From an uncultured Candidatus Binatia bacterium (lineage in GTDB: Bacteria; Desulfobacterota; Binatia; Bin18): DNA of 64,000 nucleotides. Positions 11,560 to 64,000 of the stretch are shown here, piece after piece (position 1 is the first letter of the stretch; each line of letters starts with the position of its first letter). The stretch spans positions 1,955,328 to 2,019,327 of the forward strand of contig CBDBDK010000001.1 of the NCBI GenBank assembly GCA_965203745.1. The letters run 5' to 3'. The notes under the pieces were generated by a model. The model was not told where the DNA came from and made no database searches. It saw nothing but the letters and a program-made list of their open reading frames with translations. A program made the position numbers and the translations under genes.

Positions 11560-11567
11560 GAGGTTGC

Positions 11568-43679: not shown

Positions 43680-43984
43680 GGAGGCTTCCCTTCCTTGACT
43701 GCTCCATACTCATCATGAAGTGTCCCAGCGGACAAGCTACGATCAAAACTTCTGGTGTCCCACCGAACGACAGGTGAAAGCGTGGGGTTGCCGTGATAAT
43801 TTTTCTGAGGGCTCGTCTTGTCGCTCGTCGGATATTTCGATAGTGTCATCAAAACTTTGCGGCTTCGCGCACGAAGAGCGACGGTAAGCGGAACGTTCCT
43901 GAGATGCAAAATAAGGACAGGGGGCGCTCTATCGGCTCACCGCATGGATGCAATGCGCGGAAGTCAGACCAGAAAGGAGTTGGT

Positions 43985-45106: not shown

Positions 45107-45121
45107 ATCTTCTCTTTAACC

Positions 45122-45150
45122 AGACGGGCGGAGTCATCCTCCGTCCGTCT
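45122..45150. terminator. strong hairpin between convergent LLM and YdjM-like genes (candidate bidirectional terminator)
   Basis: agacgggcggag-tcatc-ctccgtccgtct forms a 12-bp stem with one G.U pair. No clear U-tract on either side. Confidence 0.35.
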
Positions 45151-45171
45151 GTCGTCTACAATCCTACGCCC

Positions 45172-45690: not shown

Positions 45691-45758
45691 GGACCCTGAT
45701 GACCTGCTTCCCTTGAGCCATCTCCATCTCGTCTATGGAGCTATTGCCCCAATCTCGA

Positions 45759-46870: not shown

Positions 46871-47021
46871 TTTTGACAGCTTGGTGCAAGTTCGTTATGG
46901 CAGCAACGATCTTGACCCTGGCACCCAGAGGGCTTATCGTGCCCGCGAAACAGTACGTGCGCTGATATGAAGAGTAAACGTATCCTCCAATAGACAGGTA
47001 GATGCTGGACACGTTCACTCT

Positions 47022-48251: not shown

Positions 48252-48282
48252 ACAATCAAAGCCTCAACAAAGGAGGACTGTT

Positions 48283-49488
48283 ATGGCTGAACAACTCCTG
48301 TCAGGGATTAACGTCGTTGAGTGCGGCAATCTGGTTTCTGCCGCTTATACCGGCAAGCTGCTCGCCGACTTTGGTGCGGATGTGGTCAAAGTCGAAGAGT
48401 TGGGCGGTGACGTCTCCCGACAACGCGGCCCCTTTCCCGGCGATACCCCGCATGCCGAGAAGAGCGGTCTGTTCCTATACCTGAACGCCAATAAACAAGG
48501 CGTCACGCTGAATCTGCACGAACCCAAAGGGCAGGCGGTCTTGCAGAATTTATGTGCCCGGGCCGATATTCTGCTGCATAATTACAGCCCGCGCGAGATG
48601 CCCGAGGTCGGCCTGGATTACGAAAAACTGCGTCAGATCAATCCGGGCCTGATTATGACCTCGATTTCTTACTTTGGTCAGACCGGCCCGCACCGTGACT
48701 ATCACGGCTATGACCTGACGGCGAGTAACGCCGGAGGATGGGCGTTCATCAGCCCGGGTGCCTCCGATTACCCGGACCTGCCACCCCTCAAAGCGTTTGG
48801 CCATCAGACCGACTTTCAGGGCGGGGTGCACGCTGGCGTCGCAACGCTTGGCGCATATTACCATAAATGCCTGACGGGCGAAGGCCAGCACCTCGATGTC
48901 TCCGTCCAAGAGTGTATTGCTGCCATCCTGGAAATGAATTTTATGCACTACACCTATAGCGGTCTGGAAACATCGCGGCTGGGACGACGGTCCATCTATC
49001 CCTGGTGCATGCTCGACTGTAAAGACGGAAAACTCTTTGTGGTTTGTGTGGAAGAAGACCAGTGGCAGCGCTTTGTCGAGCTGATGGGCAACCCTGAATG
49101 GGCGACCCTGGAGATTTTTGCCGACCGCGTCGTCCGAGGGCAGAACTATGACGCCCTGATGCCCTTTCTTCAAGAGTTCGCCGCAGAGTGGACGGTTGCC
49201 GACCTGTATAAAGTCGGTCAAGAGCGCCGTATCTGTATGGCCCCGGTAAACACCATGTCAGACTTGATGGCCTCGGAGCATCTCAAGGCGCGTGAATTCT
49301 TTACGGAAATCAGTCATCAGGTCGCGGGCACGCTGCAATATCCGGGTGCCCCTTTTAAGGTGGAGGAGGTTGGCTATGCCGTGCGTCGTCCGGCGCCGCA
49401 GCTTGGCGAGCATAATAATGAGGTCTACGCCCGGATTGGATTCTCTCAGGCCGAGATCGATGAGCTGAAGCAGGGCGGGATTGTTTAA
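48283..49488 (+). CDS. family III CoA-transferase (CaiB/BaiF), paralog 2
   Basis: GINVVECGNLVSAAYTGKLLADFGADVVKVE. 401 aa. Confidence 0.8.
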   Translation: MAEQLLSGINVVECGNLVSAAYTGKLLADFGADVVKVEELGGDVSRQRGPFPGDTPHAEKSGLFLYLNANKQGVTLNLHEPKGQAVLQNLCARADILLHNYSPREMPEVGLDYEKLRQINPGLIMTSISYFGQTGPHRDYHGYDLTASNAGGWAFISPGASDYPDLPPLKAFGHQTDFQGGVHAGVATLGAYYHKCLTGEGQHLDVSVQECIAAILEMNFMHYTYSGLETSRLGRRSIYPWCMLDCKDGKLFVVCVEEDQWQRFVELMGNPEWATLEIFADRVVRGQNYDALMPFLQEFAAEWTVADLYKVGQERRICMAPVNTMSDLMASEHLKAREFFTEISHQVAGTLQYPGAPFKVEEVGYAVRRPAPQLGEHNNEVYARIGFSQAEIDELKQGGIV

Positions 49489-49514
49489 GGGAGCCGACCG
49501 CAAAGGAGAACGTC

Positions 49515-50732
49515 ATGGCACGACGACCGTTAGAAGGCATTCGCGTAACCGATTTTACCTGGGCCTGGGCAGGACCGTACTGTACGCTCCAAATGGCGCA
49601 TATGGGCGCGGAAGTGATTCGGATTGAGAGTGAAAAGCGTCCGTGCGTCACCCGTTTGATCCCGCCGTTTGCGGACAACGAACCTGGGCCGAACCGGGCC
49701 GGCTATTTCAACCAATACAGCCAGGGTAAGAAAAGCCTCCAGCTTGATCTGGCCCGGCCCGAGGCGTCTGAGATTGTCAAAAAACTCATTGCCAAGAGCG
49801 ATATTGTCGTGCAGAACTTCTCAACCGGGGCGATTAACCGCATGGGTTTTGGCTATGACACGCTCAAGGAACTCAAACCCGATATCATTATGATTTCAAT
49901 CTGCGGCTACGGGCAAACCGGTCCCGAACGCCACTATATGGGCTATGGGCCGGCTTCCGTTCCGTTGGCAGGAATCTCATCCTTGACCGGTTATCCAGGG
50001 GTTGGGCCGGCGGAGATCGGTATGTCGTATGGCGACCCGAACGCCGGCATCTTTGGTTCGTTTGCCGCCATGGCCGCGCTGGCCTATCGCCACCGCACCG
50101 GCAAGGGGATTCACGTTGACCTGGCATTATGGGAAGCCCTGCTCGTCCTGATGCCCGAAGGCATCATGGATTATATGATGAATCAGACCCAGCCTGAGCG
50201 CGACGGCAACCGGGATCGCTGGATGGCACCCCACGGCTGTTTTAAGTGTAAGGGCGACGCCGAGAAGTGGGTGACGATCGTGTGCGGTAGCGACGCGGAA
50301 TGGCAGGCCCTGTGTCAGGCCATCGGTCAACCGGAACTGGCCACGGATAAACGTTTTACCGATGCGGCAGCTCGGAAGGCGAACGAGGATGCGCTCGAAG
50401 AAATTATCACAGCCTGGACGAGCGAACGCGACCGCTGGGAGGTGACGGAGGTGCTGCAGAAAGCCGGCGTGGCTGCTTACCCGTCTCAGAGCAATAAAGA
50501 CTTGGCAACCAATCCGCATCTCGAAGAACGTGGCTATCTCGTGCAAAAAGAACATCCCGAATTCGGCAGACGCATCCACGCCGGCATCCCGTGGCAGATG
50601 AGCGGCTCTCCGTGCGAAGTGCAGGCCGCCGCCCCACAGCGTGGGCAACATACGGACTATGTGTTGCAGGAGCTTCTTGGCTATTCCGGCGACGAGGTGC
50701 AAAAGCTGCGAGACGAGCAGGTGTTGACCTAA
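49515..50732 (+). CDS. family III CoA-transferase (CaiB/BaiF), paralog 3
   Basis: GIRVTDFTWAWAGPYCTLQMAHMGAEVIRIE. 405 aa. Confidence 0.8.
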   Translation: MARRPLEGIRVTDFTWAWAGPYCTLQMAHMGAEVIRIESEKRPCVTRLIPPFADNEPGPNRAGYFNQYSQGKKSLQLDLARPEASEIVKKLIAKSDIVVQNFSTGAINRMGFGYDTLKELKPDIIMISICGYGQTGPERHYMGYGPASVPLAGISSLTGYPGVGPAEIGMSYGDPNAGIFGSFAAMAALAYRHRTGKGIHVDLALWEALLVLMPEGIMDYMMNQTQPERDGNRDRWMAPHGCFKCKGDAEKWVTIVCGSDAEWQALCQAIGQPELATDKRFTDAAARKANEDALEEIITAWTSERDRWEVTEVLQKAGVAAYPSQSNKDLATNPHLEERGYLVQKEHPEFGRRIHAGIPWQMSGSPCEVQAAAPQRGQHTDYVLQELLGYSGDEVQKLRDEQVLT

Positions 50733-50941
50733 CTCCGAGAGGGGAGGGTAGCCTGATTGCTGAACTGTGGGTGTAGGGCGGGTTGCGCTCGGGCCGACCT
50801 TCGCTCCATGAGAGCATGAGAAGAGTACCACCTTGCATCGGTGGTGGCTTGTGGCTAGGATCGCGGCAGTTCATATAACTGAACCTTCATTCAGCCATTC
50901 GGCCAAACTACTCTATAATTATTGAGAGAAGGGGACTCAGT

Positions 50942-52186
50942 ATGGCAGGCGCGTCACGTCAGGGTATGTTAGCTGGCTATAAAGTGCTGGACTTTACGCA
51001 GATTGTCGCCGGACCGACGACGACGCGCCTCCTGGCTGAAATGGGGGCTGAGGTCATTAAGGTTGAACAGGCTCCGAAAGGAGACCCGGCCCGCCTCAAC
51101 GGGATTCTGAAAAAAGGCCGGAGCGGCTATTTCATTCAGCACAATGTCTGCAAACAAAGCCTGTGTGTGAATCTCAAAACGGAGGAAGGGCGGGACATCG
51201 TACGCGGGCTCATTCCGCATATGGATGTGGTGGTCGAGAACTATAGTCCGGGTGCGATCAAACGGCTCGGTTTTGCCTATGAAGAACTGCAAGAGCTGAA
51301 CCCGCGTATCATCATGTGCTCGATCTCGGCCCTTGGTCAGACCGGCCCGCTGTCCCATGTGCCCGGCTATGATTTCATCGCCCAAGCGTATTCCGGCTTT
51401 AATGAAGTCACTGGCGAACGCGGCCGGGCGCCGGCCATGCCCCAGGCTGCGATTGGCGATGTGAGTACAGGAGTACATGCCTTCGGCGCGATTGCGTGTG
51501 CGCTGTTGCACCGTGAGCGGACAGGCGAAGGCCAGTATATCGACGTGTCGCTGCTCGATGCCTACATCCATTCGCACGACTTTACGATCCAGTCGCATAG
51601 CGCCTCGGGTGGCAAATTCGTCCCGACACGGAGTGGCGCTCACCATATGGGGCTGGCCCCGTGCGGTATTTTCCAGGCAAAAGATGGGTTCGTCGTCATC
51701 GTGGGTGCCCTGGACCATCAGTGGCAGGGCGTGGCGCGAACCATTGGACATCCGGAATTTGTGGAAGACCCGCGCTTCCGTACCAATCGGGATCGGGTCC
51801 ATCATAAAAAAGAACTCATCCAGGCTATTGAGGCCTGGCTCGACACCATGCCGAATCGGGAAGAGGCGGTCGCGGCTCTGCACCGTGAACGCGTGCCGGC
51901 CGCACCGGTTTTGACCATTCCGGAAGTGGTCAACCACCCCCATTTGCTTGAGCGGGAAGCCATCCGGCCGATACAGGATAAGGTGTTGGGTGATTTTGTT
52001 CTGCCTGGGTTTCCATTCCGATTTTCGAGCTCAGCTAGAACCGATGCCCCGTTTGAAGCGCCGGATTTGGGCGAACATAATGAGTCTGTCCTCCGCAATT
52101 ATCTGGCCTATACCGCTGACCAACTGGAGCGGTTAGCGCAGGACGGCATCCTTGTCAGCCGCCCAACTCCTGTAGAATACGAGTAA
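50942..52186 (+). CDS. family III CoA-transferase (CaiB/BaiF), paralog 4
   Basis: GYKVLDFTQIVAGPTTTRLLAEMGAEVIKVE. 414 aa. Preceded by a 209-nt spacer with a TATAAT-like element. Confidence 0.8.
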   Translation: MAGASRQGMLAGYKVLDFTQIVAGPTTTRLLAEMGAEVIKVEQAPKGDPARLNGILKKGRSGYFIQHNVCKQSLCVNLKTEEGRDIVRGLIPHMDVVVENYSPGAIKRLGFAYEELQELNPRIIMCSISALGQTGPLSHVPGYDFIAQAYSGFNEVTGERGRAPAMPQAAIGDVSTGVHAFGAIACALLHRERTGEGQYIDVSLLDAYIHSHDFTIQSHSASGGKFVPTRSGAHHMGLAPCGIFQAKDGFVVIVGALDHQWQGVARTIGHPEFVEDPRFRTNRDRVHHKKELIQAIEAWLDTMPNREEAVAALHRERVPAAPVLTIPEVVNHPHLLEREAIRPIQDKVLGDFVLPGFPFRFSSSARTDAPFEAPDLGEHNESVLRNYLAYTADQLERLAQDGILVSRPTPVEYE

Positions 52187-52199
52187 GGAAAGATATTTC

Positions 52200-53828
52200 A
52201 TGCACGGTAAACGCGGGTTCCGACCTGTAGTCAGTAGCGTCTTGGGTGGACTGTTACTCCTGGCGGTCTCGGCCAATATTTCTCCCTGTTACGGCTATTT
52301 CATGGACAAGCAGGTTGATAAGATCGTGAATGCCTGGTCACGCTTCGATCGTTTTCTGTCCACCTTTGATCCGGCCGGCCGCTACGTCCGCCAGCCCGTT
52401 GAACGGCAGGTCCCGGCCCTGACGTTCCGGGGCTTTCTCCGCCAGTGGTCCGATATCCAACTCTCGGGCGACCGCCGCGTCGGTAATCGACAGAAAGATT
52501 TCCGTTTTTCCCAGATGCAGAATCTGTTGGAATTGGAACTCCACTACCAAGTCTCACCCAATATCGAAATCACCAATATCAATAACTTCGTGTACGACAG
52601 CGTGTACAACTGGCAGGATTCTGCCGGTCTGTTTGCCCCCCGGACGAGCGAAAGCTTCCGCGCCTATCATAACTTCGAGCGTATCGTGCGCGAGTTATAT
52701 ATCAGCTATCGCACCCATAACCTCGACGTAGTCCTGGGCAAGCAGCAAATCGCCTGGGGCAAAATGGACGGCCAGTTTATTGACGTCATCAACGGCATGG
52801 ATAGACGCGAGTCCGTCCAGCTTGAGGCGAGCGACTACGAGTGGCGCCGGCTGCCGGCCTGGATGGCAAACGTGACCTATTTCTTTGGGGCAAATTCTCT
52901 CAACTTCCTGTGGATTCCGAACTTTGAGCAGGACCGCAATCCGGTTCCCGGCTCGCCGTGGTACTCGCCTCTGATTCCGCCTAGGGATACGGACACGAAA
53001 GCGATCCTGGACGGCCGGCAAGACGCGACCGGGGATCAGTTCAGAGAGACGAAGCGGCCGTCTACGGGCGACTTCGGGGACCATCAATACGGCCTGCGGC
53101 TTGATGTGTCCATGGAACCCCTCACCTGGGGTCTCATCTATTATTACGCCTGGAATAAAAACCCAACGTCCTTCATTGTTGACCGCGATATTGATGCTGC
53201 CGGAGACCCCTATCTGATCTTTCAGCCGCGTTTTACCCGCTTGCACCATCTGGGTATCACCGCCGACTATGCTTCCGCCCTCTCGAACATGCCGCTTGTC
53301 GGCGAACTGCCGATTGTGCTGCGGGTTGAGGGTTTGTGGACCAAAGACGTTCCCTTCGCCGACTTTGACCATCAGGATCGCGCACGGGACGGATATCTCA
53401 ACTCTGGGATCATTCGGCGTGACACCTTGCGGGCCGCGATTGCGCTGGAGTTCGCCTTTCCCGGTAATACCTCCGCGATTATACAGCCTTCCCTGTTGTA
53501 TACCTTTGACTGGCGTCGCAATCTCGGCGGTGGCTTTGGCGGAGGAATCGGAGATGAAATGAGCCTCCTTCCGGTTATGTTTATTGGACGTCCGTTTCGC
53601 TTCACCCGTGACCGTTTGCGCTTGGAGTTGACCGTCGTTCCAGTGATCAGTCTGCCGCAGAAGAAGTGGCAGGGCATAAAAACGAAATTTGTTTCGAGCT
53701 ATCGCTTTTCCCAATTTGTTACCGGTCGCCTCATTTATACGGCGTTCAGTAGCGGTGACCGGACTGACCTGTACGGTCAATATAATAAATGGGACAATAT
53801 CGGCTGGGAACTGAGCTACGAGTTCTGA
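52200..53828 (+). CDS. putative outer-membrane protein, DUF1302-like (signal peptide, C-terminal aromatic residue)
   Basis: 542 aa, signal peptide, a beta-rich low-hydrophobicity body, and the C-terminus ...WELSYEF (terminal Phe, an OMP signature). The family assignment is from memory of DUF1302/DUF1329 pairing. Confidence 0.5.
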   Translation: MHGKRGFRPVVSSVLGGLLLLAVSANISPCYGYFMDKQVDKIVNAWSRFDRFLSTFDPAGRYVRQPVERQVPALTFRGFLRQWSDIQLSGDRRVGNRQKDFRFSQMQNLLELELHYQVSPNIEITNINNFVYDSVYNWQDSAGLFAPRTSESFRAYHNFERIVRELYISYRTHNLDVVLGKQQIAWGKMDGQFIDVINGMDRRESVQLEASDYEWRRLPAWMANVTYFFGANSLNFLWIPNFEQDRNPVPGSPWYSPLIPPRDTDTKAILDGRQDATGDQFRETKRPSTGDFGDHQYGLRLDVSMEPLTWGLIYYYAWNKNPTSFIVDRDIDAAGDPYLIFQPRFTRLHHLGITADYASALSNMPLVGELPIVLRVEGLWTKDVPFADFDHQDRARDGYLNSGIIRRDTLRAAIALEFAFPGNTSAIIQPSLLYTFDWRRNLGGGFGGGIGDEMSLLPVMFIGRPFRFTRDRLRLELTVVPVISLPQKKWQGIKTKFVSSYRFSQFVTGRLIYTAFSSGDRTDLYGQYNKWDNIGWELSYEF

Positions 53829-53834
53829 CCGATT

Positions 53835-55187
53835 ATGAACGGGCGCTTTTTTTTCCTGACGATCTGGGCCTTGCTGTCCAGTCTGGCGTTCCCGGTCGCC
53901 GGGGCTGCCGAGCAGAACGGCGGTCCGCGCAAGACCTGGAAGACAGTAGAAGAACTGTCCGAGGCGGAAAAATCGCGCATTGATTTCCGGGTCGATACTC
54001 CCCGAGATGCCACGCTTCCGTATCTCCCGGCAGAGGCCTATCCCTTTCAGCCGCCCTATACCGCGGAAGAGATGGGCTATCGGGCCATGGAATTCCCCCA
54101 CATCGCCCGCTGGTCGCACGCCATGGCCGATGTGTTCGGTGCCATTACCAGCAACGGCTTCCTCGATGAAGGCATCACGTTGGCCTATAGCCACTATATG
54201 CCGGACGAGTATGGGGTGGCCGGCCAGCTCAGCGTGAGGCCGGGGGACGCCTATTTTCGAATGGTCTTCTTCTATACCTATCCGCCCGAGAACCAGGGTC
54301 TTCAGGACCTGTGGATCTTGAGACGGACGGACCAGGAGGAAACGACCAAACTGGACAATTTCATCTACAGTCCAAACCTGCGCCGCGTGCGCCGCCAGCC
54401 TCAGCCCCGCCGGGACGCGCGCTTCCCCAATAATGTCCAGACCTTTGACGATGTGGTAGGCCGCGACGCCTGGGAATTCTCGTGGCGCCTGCTGGGCACG
54501 GATGTGCTGTACGAGACGGTGCGTTTTCCCACCACCCGCCCAACGGTCACCCTGGCCAAGCCCGACGGGAGTTTTTATACGGTCCCGTCGGACCAGATTA
54601 AAATGCTGGGCGACACCTATTCGCACTATACGGCGGACGGCGGCGTGGCCTGTTATGTGGTTGAGGCGACTCGGCGGGAAGACTGGCTGCCCCATTACCG
54701 TATGAGCCGGTTGATATACTGGTTCGATCAGCACGGCTTCTATCCGCTGCGTATCGAGCAGTACGACAATGATAATCAACTGCGGATGATTGAGGTCCGA
54801 AACGCCTCTCTGGCCAACCCGGCCCTGGAAGAACGCGGCTATGCCGGCTTATTCACGCTCTATTACGATCTCGCCCTCGACCTGATGAGCTATAGCGCCC
54901 ACGACGCCCACTGGGTGAAGGAGTGGGCTCCAGAAGACCGAGAGACGATGTTTGAGCCCGACTTCATGCGTCGCAGTTGGCTCAAGTATCCACTCAAATC
55001 CCAGTCCCTGGTGTATTCTCCGGAGAAATTCTTCCTCCGCCCACACCTGTATCCAGATAAGTTTCCGCAAGACCGAAACGTTACTATCCCCACAGAGCTA
55101 GCCCAGCGCTACCGTTTGCAAGAAGAAGCCGGACATCTCGTCTTCGACAGTTCCTCTCCGCTCATTGAGGTCAAGGCGCCAGAGTAA
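53835..55187 (+). CDS. DUF1329-like periplasmic/OM-associated protein, paralog 1
   Basis: 450 aa with a signal peptide. Strongly similar to the next ORF (RKTWKTVEELSEAEKSRIDFRVDTPRDATLPYLPAEAYPFQPPYTAEEMGYRAMEFPH). Confidence 0.5.
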   Translation: MNGRFFFLTIWALLSSLAFPVAGAAEQNGGPRKTWKTVEELSEAEKSRIDFRVDTPRDATLPYLPAEAYPFQPPYTAEEMGYRAMEFPHIARWSHAMADVFGAITSNGFLDEGITLAYSHYMPDEYGVAGQLSVRPGDAYFRMVFFYTYPPENQGLQDLWILRRTDQEETTKLDNFIYSPNLRRVRRQPQPRRDARFPNNVQTFDDVVGRDAWEFSWRLLGTDVLYETVRFPTTRPTVTLAKPDGSFYTVPSDQIKMLGDTYSHYTADGGVACYVVEATRREDWLPHYRMSRLIYWFDQHGFYPLRIEQYDNDNQLRMIEVRNASLANPALEERGYAGLFTLYYDLALDLMSYSAHDAHWVKEWAPEDRETMFEPDFMRRSWLKYPLKSQSLVYSPEKFFLRPHLYPDKFPQDRNVTIPTELAQRYRLQEEAGHLVFDSSSPLIEVKAPE

Positions 55188-55195
55188 GGACCTCT

Positions 55196-56542
55196 ATGGC
55201 TCTCCGCGCGCAACAGTTCTTGTGGCTCGTTGTTTTCTGCCTGCTGTCTTCCGGTAGCATAGGGGTCGCGATTGTGGCGGCAGACCAAAGCAGTCTGATC
55301 TCACGGAAAACCTGGAAAACGGTTGCCGAGCTCACGGCCGAAGAAAAGAATGCGCTGGACCTCCGTAGTGATACGCCGCGGGATGCAAACGTCCCCTATC
55401 TGCCGGCCGAGTCCTTTCCGTTTCAACTCCCTTATACGGCTGAAGAAATGGCACTGCGAGCCATGGAGTTCCCACACTCGCCATTCTGGGACTGTGTCCT
55501 GATCGATATGGCTTTCTCGGTGACGAACTCGGGATTTATGGATCAGCGTGTGACGCTTATTCCCATCCTGTATTTTCCCGAGAATGGGTTCGGAGAACAT
55601 CTGTATGCCGCCCAGCCCGGCCAGGAAATCTATCGCTGGCTCTCCCAAAGCGTCTCTCCACCCGAACGGTATGGGAATCAGACCTTATGGATAGGCTATC
55701 GGACGGATCAAACGTTCCGGACGAAAATAGACATGTTTGCCTATTCCCCATCGCTCCGGCGAATCCGTCGTCAGCCCCAACCGCGCCGGGAAGACCGCTT
55801 ACCCAATAGCGCGGCAACGTTCGATAATTTGATCGGACGGGACGCCTGGGAATTCTCGTGGCGCATTCTCGGGACGGATATTTTGTATCAGACGGTGCGT
55901 TTTCCCAAGACGCGCCAAACCGCCGTGCTGACCGACGAAAACGGGCGGTATGTTGAGGTTGCCGCCAAAGACCTCTCCCTCATGGGTAAAGAATATCCGC
56001 TCTATACCGCAGACGGTGGAGTCAAATGCTTTGTGCTTGAAGCCATACCAAAGGCCGAATGGCTACGTGACTACTACGCCCATAAGCTGATTTACTGGGT
56101 TGACCAATATGCATTCTTTCCCTTGCGGATGGAAGAATATGACCGACAGGGGCAGTTGAGTTTTGTGAATACCCGGATTGCGACCCTGGCCAATCCAGAA
56201 CTTCAGGAACATGGCTATGCGGTCCAGTTTGACCTGTGGTGGGACGTGTCTATTGATTTCCTGTCCGCTTCGATCCACGGTTTTGTCCCGCAAACTTGGT
56301 CAGAGGAAGACAAAAAGATCTTCTTCAGCTCTGGATTTATGCGCCGCGAATGGTTCCTGGTGCCGCCCAAGGGTTTGATGAGTCTCAACTCGCCGGACGA
56401 ATTCTATCTGCGACCTCCACTCGAAGAGGAAAAATTCCCGGCCTCGCGCTCTATCGATTTGCCACCTGAAGTGCGGGCCTTGATTGAGGCCCAGGAGCGC
56501 GAGGGCAAGCTGGTATTCGAGGAAGGGCGGGGAGACGGCTAA
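55196..56542 (+). CDS. DUF1329-like periplasmic/OM-associated protein, paralog 2
   Basis: 448 aa with a signal peptide. Co-linear paralog of the previous ORF (RKTWKTVAELTAEEKNALDLRSDTPRDANVPYLPAESFPFQLPYTAEEMALRAMEFPH). Confidence 0.5.
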   Translation: MALRAQQFLWLVVFCLLSSGSIGVAIVAADQSSLISRKTWKTVAELTAEEKNALDLRSDTPRDANVPYLPAESFPFQLPYTAEEMALRAMEFPHSPFWDCVLIDMAFSVTNSGFMDQRVTLIPILYFPENGFGEHLYAAQPGQEIYRWLSQSVSPPERYGNQTLWIGYRTDQTFRTKIDMFAYSPSLRRIRRQPQPRREDRLPNSAATFDNLIGRDAWEFSWRILGTDILYQTVRFPKTRQTAVLTDENGRYVEVAAKDLSLMGKEYPLYTADGGVKCFVLEAIPKAEWLRDYYAHKLIYWVDQYAFFPLRMEEYDRQGQLSFVNTRIATLANPELQEHGYAVQFDLWWDVSIDFLSASIHGFVPQTWSEEDKKIFFSSGFMRREWFLVPPKGLMSLNSPDEFYLRPPLEEEKFPASRSIDLPPEVRALIEAQEREGKLVFEEGRGDG

Positions 56543-56563: not shown

Positions 56564-57679
56564 TTACTGCGTCTCGTGCGTGGCCTGCCAGGCGCGGCCC
56601 ATCGAGTCCGCGGCCAGAATGGCGTCGGCAACCATGTCGGGCTGCACGTCAAACGGCTCGTTATGGATGGTTTCGCCTTCGGCGGTCGCCCGCGTTGCTA
56701 CTTGTTCAAGCACGTCCTCAGGGAGCTCGGTGAGCCCGATCTCGGTCAGGGTGATAGGCAGGCCGACCGCGGATGAAAACTCCAGCACCGGATCGATAAC
56801 CGAGCGTGGCTGCCCTTCGAGCACCAACTGGGCCATCAGGCCGTAGGCGACTTTTTCCCCGTGATAATACGGGTGGGTGAGCGGGGCTGCGGTGAGGCCA
56901 TTGTGAATGGCATGGGCTGCGGCAAGACCCGAGGACTCGAAGCCTAAACCCGACAGCAGGGTGTTGGCTTCGACCACCCGCTCCAGGGCAGGATTGACAA
57001 CATTTCGTTCCACGGCCCGTTTGGCATCCGGGCCGTCTTCAACCAGGATATTGCAGCACAGCTCTGCCAGCTTTTCGGCGCTGCGCGTTGAGGCTCCACC
57101 ACGCATATTCTGGACGTGGCCGGCAACACAGGTTTTAGCCTCGAACCACGTAGCCAGCGCATCTCCCATCCCTGCCACAAGCAGTCTGGCCGGAGCTTGG
57201 GCGACGACATAGGTGTCCACAACAACCAAATCAGGGTTTTTTCGATAAAAGCGATATTCCTGGAACACTCCCTCGGGGGTATAGATCACCGACAGCGCGC
57301 TGCACGGTGCGTCGCTTGAAGCAATGCTTGGACAGTTAACGACGGGAAGGTCGAGGTCGTCCGCCGCTGCACGGGCCGCATCCAATACCTTACCGCCGCC
57401 CGCTCCAATAATAACCTGAGCCTTATTCTCCCGTGCTGTTTCTTTGATACGTTGGATTTCGGGATAGGAGCATTCCCCTCCGAACTGGTGGACGACGTGG
57501 GTGATGCCGGCATCGTTCAAATGTTTCTGCCAGACTTCTGAGAGCAGCCGAATGGCACTTTTCCCGGCAACGATACAGGCAGGCCCCTGTAGACCGATGC
57601 GCTGCATTTCCGTTCCTAGGGCTGCGGTGGCGTGTTTCCCCTGTACATAGTGGCTTGGGGCTGAAAAAACTGAGAGCAT
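56564..57679 (-). CDS. iron-containing alcohol dehydrogenase family (glycerol dehydrogenase GldA-like)
   Basis: GGGKVLD (GGGS-type) NAD motif and the metal-ligand region of group III ADH/GldA. 371 aa. Confidence 0.8.
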   Translation of the reverse strand: MLSVFSAPSHYVQGKHATAALGTEMQRIGLQGPACIVAGKSAIRLLSEVWQKHLNDAGITHVVHQFGGECSYPEIQRIKETARENKAQVIIGAGGGKVLDAARAAADDLDLPVVNCPSIASSDAPCSALSVIYTPEGVFQEYRFYRKNPDLVVVDTYVVAQAPARLLVAGMGDALATWFEAKTCVAGHVQNMRGGASTRSAEKLAELCCNILVEDGPDAKRAVERNVVNPALERVVEANTLLSGLGFESSGLAAAHAIHNGLTAAPLTHPYYHGEKVAYGLMAQLVLEGQPRSVIDPVLEFSSAVGLPITLTEIGLTELPEDVLEQVATRATAEGETIHNEPFDVQPDMVADAILAADSMGRAWQATHETQ

Positions 57680-57839
57680 ACATCCCTCCTTACCAAGTGC
57701 TGTTCCCGCAGATAGAGCAGGGTGAGAGCTTTTGCAGTATAAACTGAGACGTGTTGACGCGGCAAGCAGGAGAGGGCCAGTGGGACAAGCGGAAGACGCT
57801 ACGGTTCGGCAGAGAACGCTGCTTCTCTCAATCTCATCC

Positions 57840-57862
57840 GATATATCAGGTTCGGATATATC
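57840..57862. repeat. two copies of the palindrome GATATATC 15 bp apart, upstream of an extended -10 (TGCTATAAT 57882-57890)
   Basis: GATATATC at 57840-57847 and 57855-57862. TATAAT at 57885-57890 lies 7 nt before the ATG at 57898. Confidence 0.5.
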
Positions 57863-57897
57863 TTCCCGCTTTTGGTTCGAGTGCTATAATTGCCGCC

Positions 57898-59847
57898 ATG
57901 GCACGTACCCCTAGCGACCTTCCCGAAAATAAGGACGAAAGGGAAATTTTCTATCTACTGAAAGGGCGCTTGGACGACGAGTGGGTCTTCTGGCATGAAC
58001 CGGACCTGAAACGCTCCTACGACGACTCCAATCCCTATCGCCCGGACTTCATCCTGCTGCATCCCAGACGCGGGCTGTTTGTGCTGGAGGTCAAAGGATG
58101 GAATGCCTCCAGTATCCTGGACGTCAAGAAGAAGCAGCCTGATGACTTCGATAAAGGCAAGCAGATCGACAAGGTGCTGTACAAATTCGGCACCGGCGAC
58201 GAATGGGTTACCGCCCCTTTTGACCAGTTGAGGAATTACACCAGTTGGGTCAGGAATAGGTTGAAAGAACTGCCCCAGGTTAGCGGCAAGAAGGCCAACA
58301 AGCTGTTCAAGGGGGCGGTGTGTTTCGTACGGATTGCCAAAGACGATATCAGCGCAGGCGACCTTCTCAACTCCCATCTGGGTGAGTTACGCAAGGGCGT
58401 CCTGACCGGTAAGAGGAAGAGCGAGCAGGGATACTACGAGGGGGATTACCGACGCTGGAGAGCGCATCCCAACGAACTGCAACAAAGTCTTGCTGCCTCG
58501 CCGGATGAAGACCTACAACTCGATAAAATCTACGTCCAGATTCGGCAGATCATCCATCCAGAGTCCGTCATATCGATATTCTCTCCATCAGAGGCCGACA
58601 AGACAGACTCCAGCGAGCAGCGCCCGGAACCGGCAAGCTGTGTAGAGACGGATACCGAACCCCTCCCATGCATTCTTGACCTAGACCAGGAAGAAGTAGC
58701 CAAGGGGCACATCGGTCGAGGGCATCGTATTCTTTTCGGCGTCGCCGGTTCCGGTAAGACCGTAATCCTGATCGCCCGCGCCCGTTATCAGGCAATGCGT
58801 CACCCGGAACAGCAAATCCTTGTGCTGTGCTATAACAGGACGCTTTTCTGCTACATTGACGATGTCCTGAAGGCTCACCCGAACATTGACGTAAACACTT
58901 TTCATTCTTGGGCTCAGTCCGAATTCTCGAACTATTGGGACTTCACCGAAGACGAACGCGACAAGAATCTGCTGATACATCTGGAGCGGAAAGGGGTCAA
59001 GAAACAGTACGACTGTATCCTGATCGATGAATCCCAGGACTGGGATATCGCTTGGTTCAAGGCGATTCTGCATGCGGCCAAAGATGCGGAGGAGGGGGAT
59101 ATGCTGATCGTCGGCGATGGCAGCCAGTCCATCTACGCCAGGCAGCAGGGCTTTACCTGGAAGGCTTGTGGCATCAAGGCCAGGGGGCGGGTGATCAATC
59201 GTCGAGGCGGCAAAGTCGATACCTTCAGGAACTATCGTAACACGCCCGAAATCGTCGCACTGGCCACTTCCTTCGCCCAAGGTCTCATCTCGCAAAAGAA
59301 CACTACCTCCGAGGACGGTATGATGTCCCTATTGCCCGAGGCGAAGGACTGCGGCAAGCGGCCGAGCCACATTCTGCCGGTTATCTGCCGAGCCAAGAGC
59401 GAAGGGACCGAACTGGCCCTCGTCCATAAAGAAATACGGCACCTCCTAGAAAAGAAGCTGGTGACCCGACGCAGTGACATCGCCGTCATTTACCCTCGTG
59501 GTGACCGTGGGAAACGGCAGGACACACTGCGTAAGTTGACCAACGACCTGAACCGGCTTTACCGGACGGACTGGATCAGAGGAGGCCGGGTGAGGAATCA
59601 AGATAAAATACTAGTTGACACCATCAAAATATCCAATGTCTATCAAATCAAGGGACTGGAGTTTAAGGTGTGCTTCGTGGTCTTGGCAAACGATTTCTAC
59701 GACGAAGAGGGAGAACTTCTGTATGTGGCCTTGACCCGAGCCCAGGAGCGTCTCTACGTGACCCATCATAGGGACACGTTCCTGACTGGGAAACTGACTT
59801 CCGATATGACCCTCTATACGGATCAATTTCTTTTCTCTATGGCTTGA
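57898..59847 (+). CDS. NERD-domain (PD-(D/E)xK nuclease) / UvrD-like SF1 helicase fusion protein (Nhi-like candidate defence protein)
   Basis: NERD motif RPDFILLHPRRGLFVLEVKGW at the N-terminus. SF1 motifs follow: I GVAGSGKT, II IDESQD, III VGDGSQSIY, V KGLEFKVCFVV, VI VALTRAQERLYV. Confidence 0.75.
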   Translation: MARTPSDLPENKDEREIFYLLKGRLDDEWVFWHEPDLKRSYDDSNPYRPDFILLHPRRGLFVLEVKGWNASSILDVKKKQPDDFDKGKQIDKVLYKFGTGDEWVTAPFDQLRNYTSWVRNRLKELPQVSGKKANKLFKGAVCFVRIAKDDISAGDLLNSHLGELRKGVLTGKRKSEQGYYEGDYRRWRAHPNELQQSLAASPDEDLQLDKIYVQIRQIIHPESVISIFSPSEADKTDSSEQRPEPASCVETDTEPLPCILDLDQEEVAKGHIGRGHRILFGVAGSGKTVILIARARYQAMRHPEQQILVLCYNRTLFCYIDDVLKAHPNIDVNTFHSWAQSEFSNYWDFTEDERDKNLLIHLERKGVKKQYDCILIDESQDWDIAWFKAILHAAKDAEEGDMLIVGDGSQSIYARQQGFTWKACGIKARGRVINRRGGKVDTFRNYRNTPEIVALATSFAQGLISQKNTTSEDGMMSLLPEAKDCGKRPSHILPVICRAKSEGTELALVHKEIRHLLEKKLVTRRSDIAVIYPRGDRGKRQDTLRKLTNDLNRLYRTDWIRGGRVRNQDKILVDTIKISNVYQIKGLEFKVCFVVLANDFYDEEGELLYVALTRAQERLYVTHHRDTFLTGKLTSDMTLYTDQFLFSMA

Positions 59848-59974
59848 GATTGAATAGCAGCCCGCACTCGCTTCAGTGTGGACTCCCGATCTCCGTCCTC
59901 AATGGTCGGAAGCCGCGAGAGAAAGAGGGGGCAGGGGTCAGGGTGGAGAGACCCTAGCTTGCGTGCACTATACT

Positions 59975-60826
59975 ATGCGTCGGTTCCAAGGCTATGTGCT
60001 TTGTGGTGTTGTCCTGACTCTCTGGGCCGCAGGGTGTTCTGAATGGCCGGGTGAACCACCGAAGTTGAGCCAGCACGAATATAGCCATGTCCTCAGCACT
60101 GGGCCGTGCCCGCTCGGTGAGCGGAGCGGTCCGGGAGGTATGAGCGACGACGAGCAGACTGAACACGGGATTAAATATACGGTTCGGACGCCCGCCAACT
60201 ACAATCTAGGCATTCTTCACCCGCTCCTCATGGTCTATGCCCCTGCCGGCTCCAGTCGTTTTCGATCCGAGCATCTGACCGACCTGACTTTTGCGGCAAC
60301 GACGGCTGGCTTTGTCGTTGCCTATGCTGACTCACGCCGCCTTTCGCTCGAAGTCATTCTCGAACTCGGGACGATCCCGCGGCTTATTGCCAAAAAATGG
60401 TGCGTTGATGAGCGGCGGGTCTACCTGACCGGCCATTCTGACGGCGGAACAGTGGCCCTCGCTCTGGCCCTGTTGGACGAGACCCGCCACATCCCGGCTG
60501 CGGTGGCGCCAAGTGCCGCCGGGTTCAGGCGGGCCGACCTCGAAACCTTCTCGTGTCCCGAAACATTGTCTGCTCTGATTATGCACAGTGCCAACGACCA
60601 TCTTTTCCCCGGCTACGGGGCCGAGACGGCTTCTTGGTTGGCTGCGTGTAATCAGTGTCAGGCCGGTTTGATTGAGAAAGATAAAAATGGCTGTGGGGCC
60701 TACTCGGGATGCACAGCGCAAGGCAAAACTCTATACTGCGAAGGAACTGGTACCCATCGGCAGTGGCCTCCGCTCAATACGGCCCTCCTGTCGTTTTTTA
60801 TCGATATTGACCGCTCCCTTCACTAA
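59975..60826 (+). CDS. putative esterase, PHB-depolymerase (LpqC-like) alpha/beta-hydrolase family, lipoprotein-type signal
   Basis: The signal ends LWAAGC. Nucleophile elbow LTGHSDGG. ~280 aa. Confidence 0.5.
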   Translation: MRRFQGYVLCGVVLTLWAAGCSEWPGEPPKLSQHEYSHVLSTGPCPLGERSGPGGMSDDEQTEHGIKYTVRTPANYNLGILHPLLMVYAPAGSSRFRSEHLTDLTFAATTAGFVVAYADSRRLSLEVILELGTIPRLIAKKWCVDERRVYLTGHSDGGTVALALALLDETRHIPAAVAPSAAGFRRADLETFSCPETLSALIMHSANDHLFPGYGAETASWLAACNQCQAGLIEKDKNGCGAYSGCTAQGKTLYCEGTGTHRQWPPLNTALLSFFIDIDRSLH

Positions 60827-60916
60827 GTCGAGTTCCCACCCTGGAGTTGTCCCCACTCCCTCATCCTGCTATCTCAGGGCCTTTGGTCAATACTGAAATT
60901 CTGTAAGAACTGACCG

Positions 60917-61489
60917 ATGAGACGAGCCCGCCGAATCTCCTCTCTTCTCGCTGTTGTAGCGACGCTTTGCCTAGTGCTTCCCGTGTCATCCTGGGCACAT
61001 CGGGACAGAGGTCCCGGAGACCCATGCCGACGGGAGGTCGGGGCTTCGCTCTTGCATATTACGTTTTATCAAACGCAATTTGACCCGGTCACGGAGTATT
61101 GTGAAGAAATCCCGCGTGTGGGGAACGCCTTCCTGGTCGTGGACGTGACGCCCGATCTGTGGGAAATGCCGTTCGGTGTTGAACTCGTTGCTGCAGATGA
61201 ATCCGGACAGTCGAGTACGATCCTGTCCCTGCCTTTCCAAGTATATGAACGTGGCGTGGCCAACACTGAGGTTGTCGTGAAAGCGGGACTGCGCTACGAA
61301 GTGCGTGTCCTACTCGGGCTTGCGGAGGAACGCGAACCGCGCAAATTTTCATTTCCCTTTCAGGTTGCCGCATGGTATAAGGCCTTAGTCGGACCGGCGC
61401 TGATTGCCCTCGGGGTGGTTATCGTTCTTGCAGTCTCGGTGATTCGTTATAGGCTCACTGATCAGAGTAGAGAAGAACTGGCGAAATAA
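60917..61489 (+). CDS. hypothetical secreted protein with C-terminal TM anchor, immediately upstream of CuMMO operon (PmoD/CopC-like candidate)
   Basis: Signal peptide ends SSWA|H, so mature residue 1 would be His. Cys/His/Met-containing periplasmic domain. C-terminal helix ALVGPALIALGVVIVLAVSVI. Confidence 0.4.
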   Translation: MRRARRISSLLAVVATLCLVLPVSSWAHRDRGPGDPCRREVGASLLHITFYQTQFDPVTEYCEEIPRVGNAFLVVDVTPDLWEMPFGVELVAADESGQSSTILSLPFQVYERGVANTEVVVKAGLRYEVRVLLGLAEEREPRKFSFPFQVAAWYKALVGPALIALGVVIVLAVSVIRYRLTDQSREELAK

Positions 61490-61539
61490 AGAGAGAGAGT
61501 ATACAGTAGCATCGTTATTACTATCGAGGAGGGATAAGC

Positions 61540-62388
61540 ATGGCTCAGGCGCAAGCAGTACAAAATGCACCAAAAGGTTCCGGCGATGGTTCCATGACAA
61601 CTGGCAATCCCGCCAATCCGACTGATTGGTCAGTCGGCTGGCATCCTCTCTTCTGGGGGTGCGGGCTGATCATGCTGGCGAATGTCTTTTTCTGGTACTG
61701 GAACTACGCCTTTATGTTCACTGCCGGACTGAACTCAGCAAGCGCTGAATTCACGATGTATTACTGGACGCTGTTCTGGGGTGAATTGATTGTCTTAGGC
61801 GTATTCAGCGGAGTATGGTTGGGCTGGCTCATCCGGAATGGCCGGGCCATTCAAGGACAGGAATGCTCACCCGCCGAAGAAACGCGCCGGATTGCGATTT
61901 TGTGGAGCCTCGTTGGCGCGACGAGTCTGGCTATCTATCTGATGGCCAGCTTCTGGCCGAACTGGGATGGGTCGTGGCACCAAACCATGGTTCGTGACAC
62001 GGCATTCACCCCGACCCACATCCCGATGTTTTATTTTTTCTTCCCCCTCTCGGTTGTGTTGGCCGTCGGGACCTATATCTACGGGCGGTTCCATATCCCC
62101 GCGCTGTACGGAAAAGACAAGGGATTTCCCTGGTCGTTCTTTCTGCTGATCAGCGCCTGTGTACTCGAATGCATGGCAGTCGCTGCCAATGAGTGGGGCC
62201 ATAGCCTGTGGATATCTGAAGAAATCTTCTCTGTTCCGTTTCACTGGCCGTTTGTGATTTACGGCTGGCTTGCGGCGGGTATGTTTGCGGTGTGGGGCGA
62301 GACGCTAGTGCGCATGTTCGAGATAGAGAAGATCGAAGAGGATACCAACCCGGAAGCCTCGCTTGAGTCGCCGATCGCCGCCGATTAA
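61540..62388 (+). CDS. xmoC: copper membrane monooxygenase subunit C (PmoC/AmoC family)
   Basis: Matches PmoC/AmoC conserved blocks: SWHQTMVRDTAFTPTHI (cf. GTWHQTIVRDTDFTPSHI), NEWGHSLWISEEIF (cf. NEWGHTFWFMEELF), VPFHWPFVIYGW. GAGGAGG RBS. Confidence 0.85.
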   Translation: MAQAQAVQNAPKGSGDGSMTTGNPANPTDWSVGWHPLFWGCGLIMLANVFFWYWNYAFMFTAGLNSASAEFTMYYWTLFWGELIVLGVFSGVWLGWLIRNGRAIQGQECSPAEETRRIAILWSLVGATSLAIYLMASFWPNWDGSWHQTMVRDTAFTPTHIPMFYFFFPLSVVLAVGTYIYGRFHIPALYGKDKGFPWSFFLLISACVLECMAVAANEWGHSLWISEEIFSVPFHWPFVIYGWLAAGMFAVWGETLVRMFEIEKIEEDTNPEASLESPIAAD

Positions 62389-62451
62389 TGCAGCGGCGTG
62401 GGCGTGGATCGCTAAACATATCGAAAATCCTCGTGCAGAGAGGAAGGACGC

Positions 62452-63255
62452 ATGGCGACGGAAACCACCACCGTAACCGACATCGCAGATGCGGCGGAAC
62501 GGCAGAGGCGGCTTGAACTCAAAGAACTGCTCAACAAGAAATATAAGTGGGTTGATTGGAAGTGGGATCTTGTTTTCTGGACCACGGCAGTTTTCGTGGT
62601 AGCCGGTGCCGCTGACATCACCAAGCAGTTGTTTGCCGGTGACTGGGATTTCTGGACGGATTGGAAAGACCCACAGTGGTGGCCAGTAGTCACGGCCTTT
62701 GCCACCATCATCATCCCCTCGACGCTGCAATACATTCAGTGGACGGCTTGGCGCTTTCCGACTGGTGCGACCTACACCGCGTGTTGTTTGTTTTTTGCGG
62801 CCTGGGTTGGGCGGTATTTCCAGTGGGACCTCGCGGCGACCTACCCTATGAACTTCGTGTGGCCTGCCTCCGTCGTTTGCGCCGGGATTTTGATGGACTG
62901 GACCTTAATGAAAACCAAGAGCTTCATCCTCACCTCGTTGATCGGGGCTCATGTGTGGGCGATTGCGGTGTGGGCCTATAATTACGTTCCCTTGGCTGCC
63001 TTTCTCCAGCCGGCCCATTTTATGGATCATGTGGTGACGGTTGCTGATGTTCAGGGCATTGCCTATATCCGCTCTCAAACCCCGGAATACCTTCGGCTGA
63101 TTGAACGCGGCGCGTTGCGGAGTTTCCTGGGTGAGACGCAATACGTTTCGCTGGCCTTTGGCGGAACGGCGGCTTTTGCTGGCTACTGGATCGGTCAATT
63201 TATTGGCCGGTATCTGGCAGTGTGGCCGATTCGGCGCTATCTGAAAACTGTATGA
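62452..63255 (+). CDS. xmoA: copper membrane monooxygenase subunit A (PmoA/AmoA family)
   Basis: AGDWDFWTDWKDPQWWPVVT (cf. AmoA [20 protein letters not shown]). Also FPTGAT, YPMNFVWP, LMDWTL, QTPEYLRLIERGALRSF. Confidence 0.9.
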   Translation: MATETTTVTDIADAAERQRRLELKELLNKKYKWVDWKWDLVFWTTAVFVVAGAADITKQLFAGDWDFWTDWKDPQWWPVVTAFATIIIPSTLQYIQWTAWRFPTGATYTACCLFFAAWVGRYFQWDLAATYPMNFVWPASVVCAGILMDWTLMKTKSFILTSLIGAHVWAIAVWAYNYVPLAAFLQPAHFMDHVVTVADVQGIAYIRSQTPEYLRLIERGALRSFLGETQYVSLAFGGTAAFAGYWIGQFIGRYLAVWPIRRYLKTV

Positions 63256-63274
63256 GACGAATATGAGGTGCGGT

Positions 63275-63616
63275 ATGTCTTTCGAACCTCAGCAGCTCGC
63301 CGGATACGGAAGAGTCTGCTCTGTGCTCATGGCTCTTCTTGCCGGCCTGTCTCTGTTTCCTTCCCCCGTGTATGCGCACGGTATGAATATCTCTGAAATA
63401 GCCCCGCCCGTCATGACCGCAGGCGTTTTGGCGTTTGTGTGTTACTGGCTGGTGGTTTTGTGGCCGGCGTCGAAGGGTGTGGAGACGGACGGACGCGGAT
63501 CGCCGGAAACGGACCGGATTATTCGCATCAAGCGCAAGCCCCGCCTGCGCGTCATAGAAACCAAGTCTCAGCTCCCGGACGAACAGCCCGAACCCAGGAG
63601 AGCGGCGGATGGCTAA
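63275..63616 (+). CDS. small membrane protein encoded between CuMMO A and B subunit genes
   Basis: Signal peptide ends VYA|HG. One TM helix (VMTAGVLAFVCYWLVVLWPA). Basic/Pro-rich C-terminal tail. An alternative start is at 63263. Confidence 0.4.
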   Translation: MSFEPQQLAGYGRVCSVLMALLAGLSLFPSPVYAHGMNISEIAPPVMTAGVLAFVCYWLVVLWPASKGVETDGRGSPETDRIIRIKRKPRLRVIETKSQLPDEQPEPRRAADG

Positions 63617-63626
63617 GCGATTCGTG

Positions 63627-64000
63627 ACTGGCAGTGAAAGAGTAAGCGTGTCCTCCAATAGATATAAGATGCTGGGCACGTTTACTCTTTTTGGCGTGCT
63701 ATTCGTACTGGCCGTTGTTGCTGCCAATACGCCGCACGCCTTTGCTCACGGTGAGGCTGCCGACGAACCGTTTTTGAAAAACATGACCACGGCTTTCTTC
63801 AATGTCAGCGTGTCGCCGACTGAAATTGAGGTTGGAGAGCCGGTCAAGGTTACGGGGTCGGTCAAGATTCTCGAAACCTGGCCGCATACGCTGGAAACAC
63901 CGGAAATCGCTTCTATTATGCCGGTCGTTCCCGGACCAGTCTTTGTGCTCAAAGAGCGTTTTGTCAATGGAACGGCTGCGATCGGATCGTTCTTTGCCCA
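63627..64000 (+). CDS. xmoB: copper membrane monooxygenase subunit B (PmoB/AmoB family), 5' part (runs off window)
   Basis: Signal peptide ends AFA|HGEAADEPFL (cf. PmoB mature N-terminus HGEKSQAAF). WPHTLETPE and PGPVFVLKERFVNG (cf. PGPVFIRKESYIGG). Open to the window end. Confidence 0.75.

Follow-up and report, generated by a model that had tools for sequence, protein, structure and literature searches.

A conserved single-helix membrane protein as a candidate fourth component of a copper membrane monooxygenase in Candidatus Binatia

At the end of a 64,000-nucleotide stretch of DNA (the window) from an uncultured Candidatus Binatia bacterium lies the 5' part of an operon for a copper membrane monooxygenase (CuMMO), the type of enzyme that controls the oxidation of methane, ammonia, and short alkanes and whose active site and complete set of subunits are still under debate. 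Five open reading frames (ORFs), all on the plus strand, are packed into positions 60917-64000: ORF190, xmoC, xmoA, a small ORF that we call x (ORF113), and the 5' part of xmoB. The operon is real and represents another copy of a kind of CuMMO cluster already published for Binatota, the candidate phylum in which Binatia is a class. Two points are new: by profile and predicted fold, we identify ORF190 as a PmoD-family protein of the Cx9H class, and we define x as a conserved gene whose product we infer to be a candidate fourth component of the enzyme.

We consider it probable that this region is the 5' part of a functional cluster that works along the following lines. XmoCAB would form the usual trimeric membrane enzyme, hydroxylating a small apolar substrate with O2, and a periplasmic pyrroloquinoline quinone (PQQ) dehydrogenase would oxidize the alcohol that it makes. 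Two PmoD paralogues and a multicopper oxidase would acquire and load the copper, a purpose that an SCO1 domain fused to PmoD would serve in soil relatives. The small protein x would be made together with XmoB through translational coupling and would insert with its N-terminus outside, beside the enzyme, as a supernumerary helix that holds a conserved stub of His and acidic residues at the periplasmic membrane surface near a copper site.

The operon and its catalytic subunits

All three catalytic subunits match their protein families at E-values far beyond chance. XmoC (282 amino acids (aa); 61540-62388) matches the Pfam family AmoC (E=1.2e-42), XmoA (267 aa; 62452-63255) matches AMO (E=1.2e-52), and XmoB, whose first 130 codons lie in the window (63609-64000), matches Monooxygenase_B (E=1.8e-16) as well as the NCBIfam model AmoB_BACT (E=8e-22); each of the Pfam matches exceeds its gathering score. 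The genes follow the order C-A-x-B on a single strand, with one extra gene inserted between A and B. The successive gaps of 50, 63, and 19 nucleotides (nt) and the final 8-nt overlap between x and xmoB indicate a tight operon. At this last junction, xmoB starts with the ATG at 63609, with AGGAG 8 nt upstream, and overlaps the stop codon of x. A scan for promoters and terminators over 59800-64000 gave no interpretable signal.

As a proxy for the operon end that is missing from the window, we used a 233-kb contig (L001) that matches the last 8 kb of the window at 99.56% identity (blastn) and that supplies the full XmoB and the downstream genes. This full-length XmoB (436 aa) aligns with Methylococcus capsulatus PmoB (3RGB) over residues 24-428 (E=3e-56). 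XmoB keeps the equivalents of His33, His137, and His139, the CuB ligands, within AHGE in the window and WHVH in the L001 protein, and the predicted cleavage of its signal peptide at AFA/HGE would leave the N-terminal copper-binding His in place; the dispensable bis-His site is absent from the full-length alignment. In XmoC, alignment to Methylocystis PmoC (4PHZ) shows that the CuC ligands (D-x3-H ... H) are intact as DGSWH..PTH and the CuD ligands (N-x3-H ... H) as NEWGH..FHW. By these alignments, XmoCAB retains all CuB, CuC, and CuD copper ligands, and the catalytic subunits look functional.

At the same time, the subunits score below the canonical bacterial monooxygenases for methane (the particulate type, pMMO) and for ammonia (AMO). 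On the NCBIfam equivalog models, XmoC (157 bits; cut-off 319) and XmoA (193 bits; cut-off 290) reach about half of the required score, while the 78 bits of the XmoB fragment against a cut-off of 336 do not make a meaningful comparison, with 117 of 436 residues scanned. XmoA shares 36% identity with PmoA of M. capsulatus and 42% with HmoA of Mycolicibacterium chubuense NBB4, and these two are about equally distant from each other (40%). Closer relatives outside Binatia, at 65-72% XmoA identity, occur in Carbonactinospora, Lentzea, Dormibacteraeota, and Caldinitratiruptor. A scan with one genome per species gave 370 XmoA relatives, and the best 80 of these are nearly all labelled Candidatus Binatia, Binataceae, or 'Deltaproteobacteria' metagenome-assembled genomes (73-99% XmoA identity). 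The exact XmoA protein is present on several public contigs, and many Candidatus Binatia genomes carry XmoA at 97-99% identity. Judged by these identities, the host is a member of Candidatus Binatia. The placement of the clade was based on pairwise identities together with Murphy et al. 2021.

The substantive claims of an earlier note on this DNA, made from the letters alone, are all borne out by these results. The profile searches that it recommended support its reading of three ORFs as CuMMO subunits C, A, and B and of their divergence from canonical pMMO and AMO, and its coordinates and ORF sizes are right. The two extra membrane or periplasmic ORFs that it described, one 5' of C and one between A and B, were located and have helices in their AlphaFold2 models. 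Binatota, one of the hosts at which it guessed, agrees with the XmoA identities above, and the full xmoB that it advised retrieving was recovered from the L001 contig.

A conserved small protein encoded between XmoA and XmoB

The gene x (63275-63616, plus strand) encodes a small bitopic membrane protein of 113 aa, or 117 aa if translation begins at an alternative ATG at 63263, and has GAGG 6 nt before the ATG at 63275. Its design is constant: a signal peptide with an invariant Ala-His end, a periplasmic stub of about 10 residues, a transmembrane (TM) helix, and a basic cytoplasmic tail. The stub follows the pattern HG..E..PP (HGG...E.GPP), the TM block reads CYW.V.LWP, and six columns (A, H, P, Y, W, P) are invariant across 28 diverse members. 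In agreement with this layout, the AlphaFold2 model consists of helices 8-26 and 44-61, which correspond to the signal peptide and the TM helix, and little beyond them.

Could x be a chance ORF or an intergenic spacer? Its tail is of low complexity and family databases give it no match: Pfam and NCBIfam yielded nothing useful for either x or ORF190, the sole hit being a spurious TraD (E=0.018). However, of 87 sequences, 81 have x in its place between xmoA and xmoB, with frame and motif kept over 73-99% XmoA identity, and the exceptions are truncated or frameshifted contigs. The ratio of nonsynonymous to synonymous substitutions (dN/dS) among close strains is 0.24 for x versus 0.025 for XmoA, indicating that x is a selected coding gene, though one less constrained than XmoA. 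Together with the six invariant columns and the Shine-Dalgarno sequence upstream, these observations effectively refute the spacer explanation, to which we assign a negligible probability. On the strength of the alignments, x is a conserved gene under purifying selection, predicted to encode a single-helix membrane protein.

The family to which x belongs is small and unannotated. A word-indexed search returned 343 clusters, all 'hypothetical', and an exhaustive HMMER search among 1.84 billion proteins returned only 100 representatives, again without annotation. Two divergent members with readable contigs are likewise flanked by xmoA or xmoB, and outside Binatia a significant homologue of x stands between A and B in Caldinitratiruptor (E=1e-8). 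In two clearly different sequences (L051, about 10790-12390, and P0305), x and XmoB are fused in frame with no stop between them, an arrangement that is topologically consistent in that the cytoplasmic tail of x enters the XmoB signal sequence. Another locus (L090) carries a tandem duplication of x, matching the 'CAxxB' order of Murphy et al. Three further candidates were discarded: an apparent XmoA-x fusion (P0355), which looks like a frameshifted read, and two long repetitive proteins (P0398 and P0399) that match only in an AHAHGG stretch.

We suggest that x may be either a supernumerary subunit of the CuMMO, the fourth, or a helper in copper handling. Its fixed operon position, its fusions to XmoB, and the translational coupling with xmoB are indirect hints that x binds to XmoCAB. 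A more specific and tentative proposal, which we would put below even chances, is that x is an unrecognized operon-encoded fourth subunit of the HMO-like CuMMO branch (after hydrocarbon monooxygenase, HMO), a single helix that would pack against XmoC and XmoB and present its His-Gly-Gly...Asp-Glu stub at the periplasmic membrane surface near a copper site. Its homologues would then be the small ORFs located after hmoB in Mycolicibacterium, Rhodococcus, Carbonactinospora, and Lentzea. If this is true, the genetically tractable NBB4/M. smegmatis system already contains an x-type subunit.

These actinobacterial ORFs, small and unannotated, lie directly 3' of hmoB in M. chubuense NBB4, Rhodococcus WAY2, M. 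dioxanotrophicus, Carbonactinospora, and Lentzea, and among these operons that of NBB4 has been expressed experimentally. They read M...LAHGGQ(L/M)T(G/S)DE..., followed by one TM helix and then a basic tail, RRTR; examples with the LAHGG-x4-DE stub are found at L093 7101-7316, L094 7078-7359, L095 5577-5873, L088 8145-8372, and L092 7048-7338. The H-G-G-x4-D-E spacing is identical in these ORFs and in Binatia x. The actinobacterial ORFs have no signal peptide, and so their His is not N-terminal. When the profile of x was compared with that of the post-hmoB ORFs by hhalign, the HGG..DE region was aligned with a probability of 11.6% (P=0.0026), which is not significant, and a local hidden Markov model search with x did not recover them. 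Because of this low hhalign probability, we treat the resemblance as a lead and do not claim homology. Several actinobacterial hmoCAB operons carry a second small membrane ORF after the first. A full-text literature search, incomplete in its coverage, found no account of the x family or of the small ORF after hmoB.

Alternatively, x may be a minimal periplasmic factor for assembly or copper chaperoning, tethered to the membrane, which would hand copper to XmoB or XmoC via its N-terminal His and acidic residues, or aid XmoB insertion, and then leave. With the A/H cleavage site invariant, the mature protein would begin with His, in the manner of the PmoB His brace, and the operon carries many genes for handling copper (two PmoD copies and a multicopper oxidase, plus SCO1 in relatives). 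A dN/dS ten times that of XmoA is also in keeping with a transient helper. However, the two lineages in which x is fused to XmoB, together with the translational coupling, point to a 1:1 stoichiometry with a structural subunit, and the strongest conservation falls within the TM helix (CYW..LWP), suggesting helix packing over a soluble metal site. The actinobacterial look-alikes, in which the His is not N-terminal, also fit poorly with a chaperone that depends on it. We regard this role as possible and somewhat doubtful. As a subunit, x would fall in line with the single helices that have recently emerged in related enzymes, discussed below.

PmoD proteins and the surrounding genes

The first gene of the operon, ORF190 (60917-61489, plus strand), encodes a predicted periplasmic copper protein of the PmoD family. 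A profile built from 38 homologues matches PmoD in the PDB (6CPD) at E=1.5e-11, and the AlphaFold2 model (mean predicted local distance difference test score, pLDDT, 84) contains a signal helix (2-19), a nine-strand cupredoxin-like beta-sandwich, and a helix (153-189) that would serve as a C-terminal TM anchor. The top Foldseek match of this model in the PDB is 6cpd_A (E=3e-8; TM-score 0.74, normalized to the target). The signal peptide is predicted to be cut between A27 and H28 (WA/HRDRG), making an invariant His the predicted mature N-terminus. C37 and C62 are invariant in the 38 homologues and align with PmoD Cys41 and Cys65, while the PmoD ligand His51 has its counterpart in His47. The sequence reads C37-x9-H47, with Leu45 at the position of the CuA ligand Met49, and departs from the CuA motif C-x7-M-x-H-xn-C; the Leu in place of Met49 assigns ORF190 to the C-x9-H-xn-C class, which binds copper without forming a CuA center (Fisher et al. 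2018). By profile, fold, and motif, ORF190 is a PmoD-family member of the Cx9H class.

A second PmoD-like gene follows xmoB in L001. It is a paralogue of ORF190, also reads C-x9-H, and has its true start 5' of the called one, which adds a signal peptide. In soil Binataceae, PmoD is fused upstream of xmoC to an SCO1/SenC domain with CPGVC (L049 7820-8989, Pfam E=7e-16; L060 7858-9072, E=9e-20), and this fusion to a copper-chaperone domain supports a copper-delivery role for the PmoD-like proteins. Fisher et al. found PmoD confined to the genomes of methane and ammonia oxidizers, with none in Mycobacterium or Nocardioides. PmoD-type copper proteins outside the classical methane and ammonia oxidizers, some of them fused to SCO1, bear on how copper is delivered to CuMMOs.

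Read by the -3/-1 rule, four secreted proteins of the operon are predicted to begin with His: ORF190 (WA/HRDRG), x (YA/HGMN), XmoB (FA/HGEA), and the downstream PmoD (WG/HGGV). In the same order, their genes occupy 8465-9037, 10824-11165, 11158-12468, and 12428-13075 of L001, and the first three correspond to window 60917-64000.

The full cluster inferred from L001 runs pmoD-like, xmoC, xmoA, x, xmoB, pmoD-like, multicopper oxidase, cupredoxin, and PQQ alcohol dehydrogenase. The multicopper oxidase (564 aa) lies downstream of the second PmoD. The membrane-anchored cupredoxin (242 aa) has an N-terminus rich in His, a C-x4-H-x4-M loop like that of azurin, and an anchor at its C-terminus, features read from its sequence; Pfam gives it just a weak Cu-oxidase_2 match. 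The PQQ dehydrogenase (561 aa) belongs to the methanol/ethanol family (TIGR03075, 595 bits; cut-off 480) and has, again as read from the sequence, a vicinal Cys pair and a D-Y-D motif. The latter motif marks lanthanide-dependent PQQ dehydrogenases.

How constant this architecture is can be seen by dividing the clade into a close group, with XmoA at least 85% identical to that of the window, and a distant group at 73-85%, mostly soil Binataceae. The gene x is found in 34/34 of the close and 42/46 of the distant group, and the upstream PmoD in 31/31 and 23/39, respectively. The downstream PmoD (25/31 and 0/40), multicopper oxidase (24/27 and 1/33), cupredoxin (26/27 and 1/33), and PQQ dehydrogenase (25/27 and 0/28) are features of the close group. 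Thus, x is the sole universal accessory gene of the clade.

Upstream of the operon, the window holds on its plus strand a luciferase-like monooxygenase (43904-45106), four paralogous family-III CoA-transferases (47022-52186), and a DUF1302 protein with two DUF1329/LolA-like proteins (52200-56542). It is plausible that the genes at 43904-56542 form a block that takes up and activates hydrophobic or carboxylated substrates. An iron-type, GldA-like alcohol dehydrogenase follows on the minus strand (56564-57679; PRK09423, glycerol/1,2-propanediol dehydrogenase, 489 bits; cut-off 336) and is kept beside the cluster in many loci. Between it and an esterase gene, a NERD-domain and UvrD-like superfamily 1 helicase (57751-59847, plus strand) is present in this strain, L001, and L003 and absent from L002 and most other Binatia loci; this comparison of loci marks it as an insertion of about 2.2 kb, variable among strains, that adjoins the operon. 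Directly upstream of ORF190 lies an alpha/beta-hydrolase with a weak AXE1 match and a lipoprotein-like N-terminus (316 aa; 59876-60826, plus strand), whose position is conserved in most marine-type Binatia loci. In a close strain, two minus-strand genes (L003 3513-4916), one of them for a GspG-like pseudopilin of the type II secretion system, stand in place of the GldA-like dehydrogenase. Fragments of the dehydrogenase are still detected there by tblastn, which suggests a disrupted gene.

Substrate and relation to known systems

The substrate cannot be read from the sequence, and here our outcome is the same as that of the earlier note, which had named methane, ammonia, and short alkanes. It had also raised a hydrocarbon substrate rather than methane or ammonia, which is possible. 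We favor C2-C4 alkanes over methane to a modest degree, on grounds that lie in gene neighborhoods and phylogeny. The XmoA relatives at 65-72% identity adjoin genes for a MimR-type activator, a zinc-dependent alcohol dehydrogenase, an amidohydrolase, and a DUF59 protein, neighbors typical of propane and acetone monooxygenase clusters, and this leans toward short alkanes or C3 oxygenates. The luciferase-like monooxygenase, CoA-transferases, DUF1302/DUF1329 proteins, and GldA-like dehydrogenase upstream of the operon point the same way, as does the placement of most Binatota PmoA in the bmoA/SAR324 clade by Murphy et al. 2021 (PMC8262859).

Several points weigh against the overall reading that we prefer. 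XmoB past residue 130 and all downstream genes were taken from a near-identical contig and not from the window, and the clade is known from sequence alone. At 42% identity, XmoA is barely closer to NBB4 HMO, the sole characterized hydrocarbon enzyme, than to pMMO at 36%. As a bound subunit, x is putative, with an AlphaFold2 model of low confidence (pLDDT 66), and its link to the post-hmoB ORFs is statistically weak. Finally, the restriction of PmoD to methane and ammonia oxidizers in Fisher et al. 2018 and the XoxF-like dehydrogenase argue for methane, and pmoA transcripts of sponge Binatota have been read as methanotrophy.

These last points belong to the case for a true pMMO in a methanotrophic host, in which methane would be converted to methanol and then oxidized by the lanthanide-type, XoxF-like dehydrogenase. 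PmoD homologues flank the operon, a PQQ dehydrogenase of the methanol/ethanol family is part of the cluster, every pMMO copper ligand is kept, and the sponge Binatota that transcribe pmoA have been interpreted as methane sinks. However, XmoA shares just 36% identity with PmoA and falls far under the NCBIfam equivalog cut-offs, and its closest non-Binatia relatives lie in propane/acetone-type neighborhoods. Both PmoD copies fall into the Cx9H class, whereas it is the CuA class that has been tied to methane growth, and Murphy et al. connect only TUSC-type Binatota enzymes with methane. On balance, we think methane a rather unlikely substrate, though one to be taken seriously.

An oxygenated C2-C3 compound such as acetone, as for verrucomicrobial PmoCAB3, is improbable. 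An acetone-oxidizing pMMO homologue has reportedly been found, a GldA-like glycerol/1,2-propanediol dehydrogenase (489 bits) lies just upstream, and relatives adjoin MimR-type regulators. Yet these are gene-neighborhood hints, and the GldA-like gene, which lies on the other strand, is separated from the operon by the helicase insertion in this strain. More improbable still is an ammonia monooxygenase. The top-scoring NCBIfam models are bacterial AmoA, AmoB, and AmoC, but their scores are only about half of the cut-offs, the 17.8-kb cluster contains an alcohol dehydrogenase and no hydroxylamine oxidoreductase, and the clade is unrelated to known nitrifiers. Short alkanes stay our favored substrates for the Binatia enzyme.

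The closest known systems are the Binatota operons of Murphy et al. 2021 (mBio, PMC8262859). That paper reports CuMMO genes from Bin18 and Binatales, orders of the Binatota, arranged as CAB, CAxB, and CAxxB, with pmoD in 5/11 genomes, conserved PmoB histidines, and two phylogenetic types, and leaves the substrate between methane and short alkanes. The present operon is alike in phylum, in its C-A-x-B order with a hypothetical x, in having pmoD, as some of those genomes do, and in the equivalents of PmoB His33, His137, and His139. Because the CAxB order and pmoD are already published, the operon layout is not new. The earlier note, which had called the layout unusual, had allowed that the operon might fall within a well-characterized clade with the same accessory genes already described. 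Of this, the description of the accessory genes holds, whereas the clade has not been characterized biochemically. The differences lie in x, left there as a 'hypothetical protein', and in the x family, motif, and fusions, the PmoD upstream of xmoC, and the PmoD-SCO1 fusions, none of which is described in the portion of the paper on which we rely.

HmoCAB of strain NBB4, which acts on C2-C4 alkanes, is likewise a CuMMO for neither methane nor ammonia. Its genes run C-A-B and are then followed by the small ORF MYCCH_RS28755, which combines an H-G-G-x4-D-E stub with a single TM helix and a tail of basic residues. XmoCAB is nonetheless not closely affiliated with it (42, 34, and 36% identity for A, B, and C). 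The small ORF differs in following B, in having no signal peptide, and in showing no significant homology to x, and such genomes have no PmoD and carry as neighbors an N,N-dimethyl-4-nitrosoaniline (NDMA)-dependent methanol dehydrogenase and a soluble di-iron monooxygenase. A looser likeness is that to NC10 'Ca. Methylomirabilis oxyfera', where, as the earlier note had stated, the pmoA and pmoB locus tags are not consecutive: pmoC is Damo_2451, pmoA is Damo_2450, and pmoB is Damo_2448 (PMC6094997). One locus tag (Damo_2449) thus lies between pmoA and pmoB, a likeness at the level of locus tags only.

For ORF190, the counterpart is PmoD of Methylocystis sp. Rockwell (6CPD; Fisher et al. 2018). 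The two are alike in signal peptide, cupredoxin-like fold, two Cys, a His at Cys+10, a C-terminal TM helix, and location in a CuMMO operon. They differ in that ORF190 has Leu at the Met49 position, is encoded upstream of xmoC rather than after xmoB, and has an invariant His as its predicted mature N-terminus.

For x, the comparison is with the supernumerary single-helix subunits that were recently found in pMMO and AMO by cryo-electron microscopy (cryo-EM) in native membranes (PMC11725843, PMC12804982). The bacterial helices, of 23 and 46 residues, have their genes at other places in the genome, and no function is known for them; in archaeal AMO, the subunits AmoX, AmoY, and AmoZ have recently been discovered, with AmoX encoded next to amoA. 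Like these proteins, x is small (113 aa) and has a single TM helix, which in x follows a signal peptide, and its predicted orientation, with the N-terminus outside, agrees with that of the Methylocystis Rockwell helix. Unlike the bacterial cryo-EM helices, x is encoded in the operon itself and is known from genes alone. Fixed between xmoA and xmoB, sometimes fused to XmoB, and with a possible counterpart beside the only recombinantly expressed CuMMO, x would give a genetic handle on the function of such helices.

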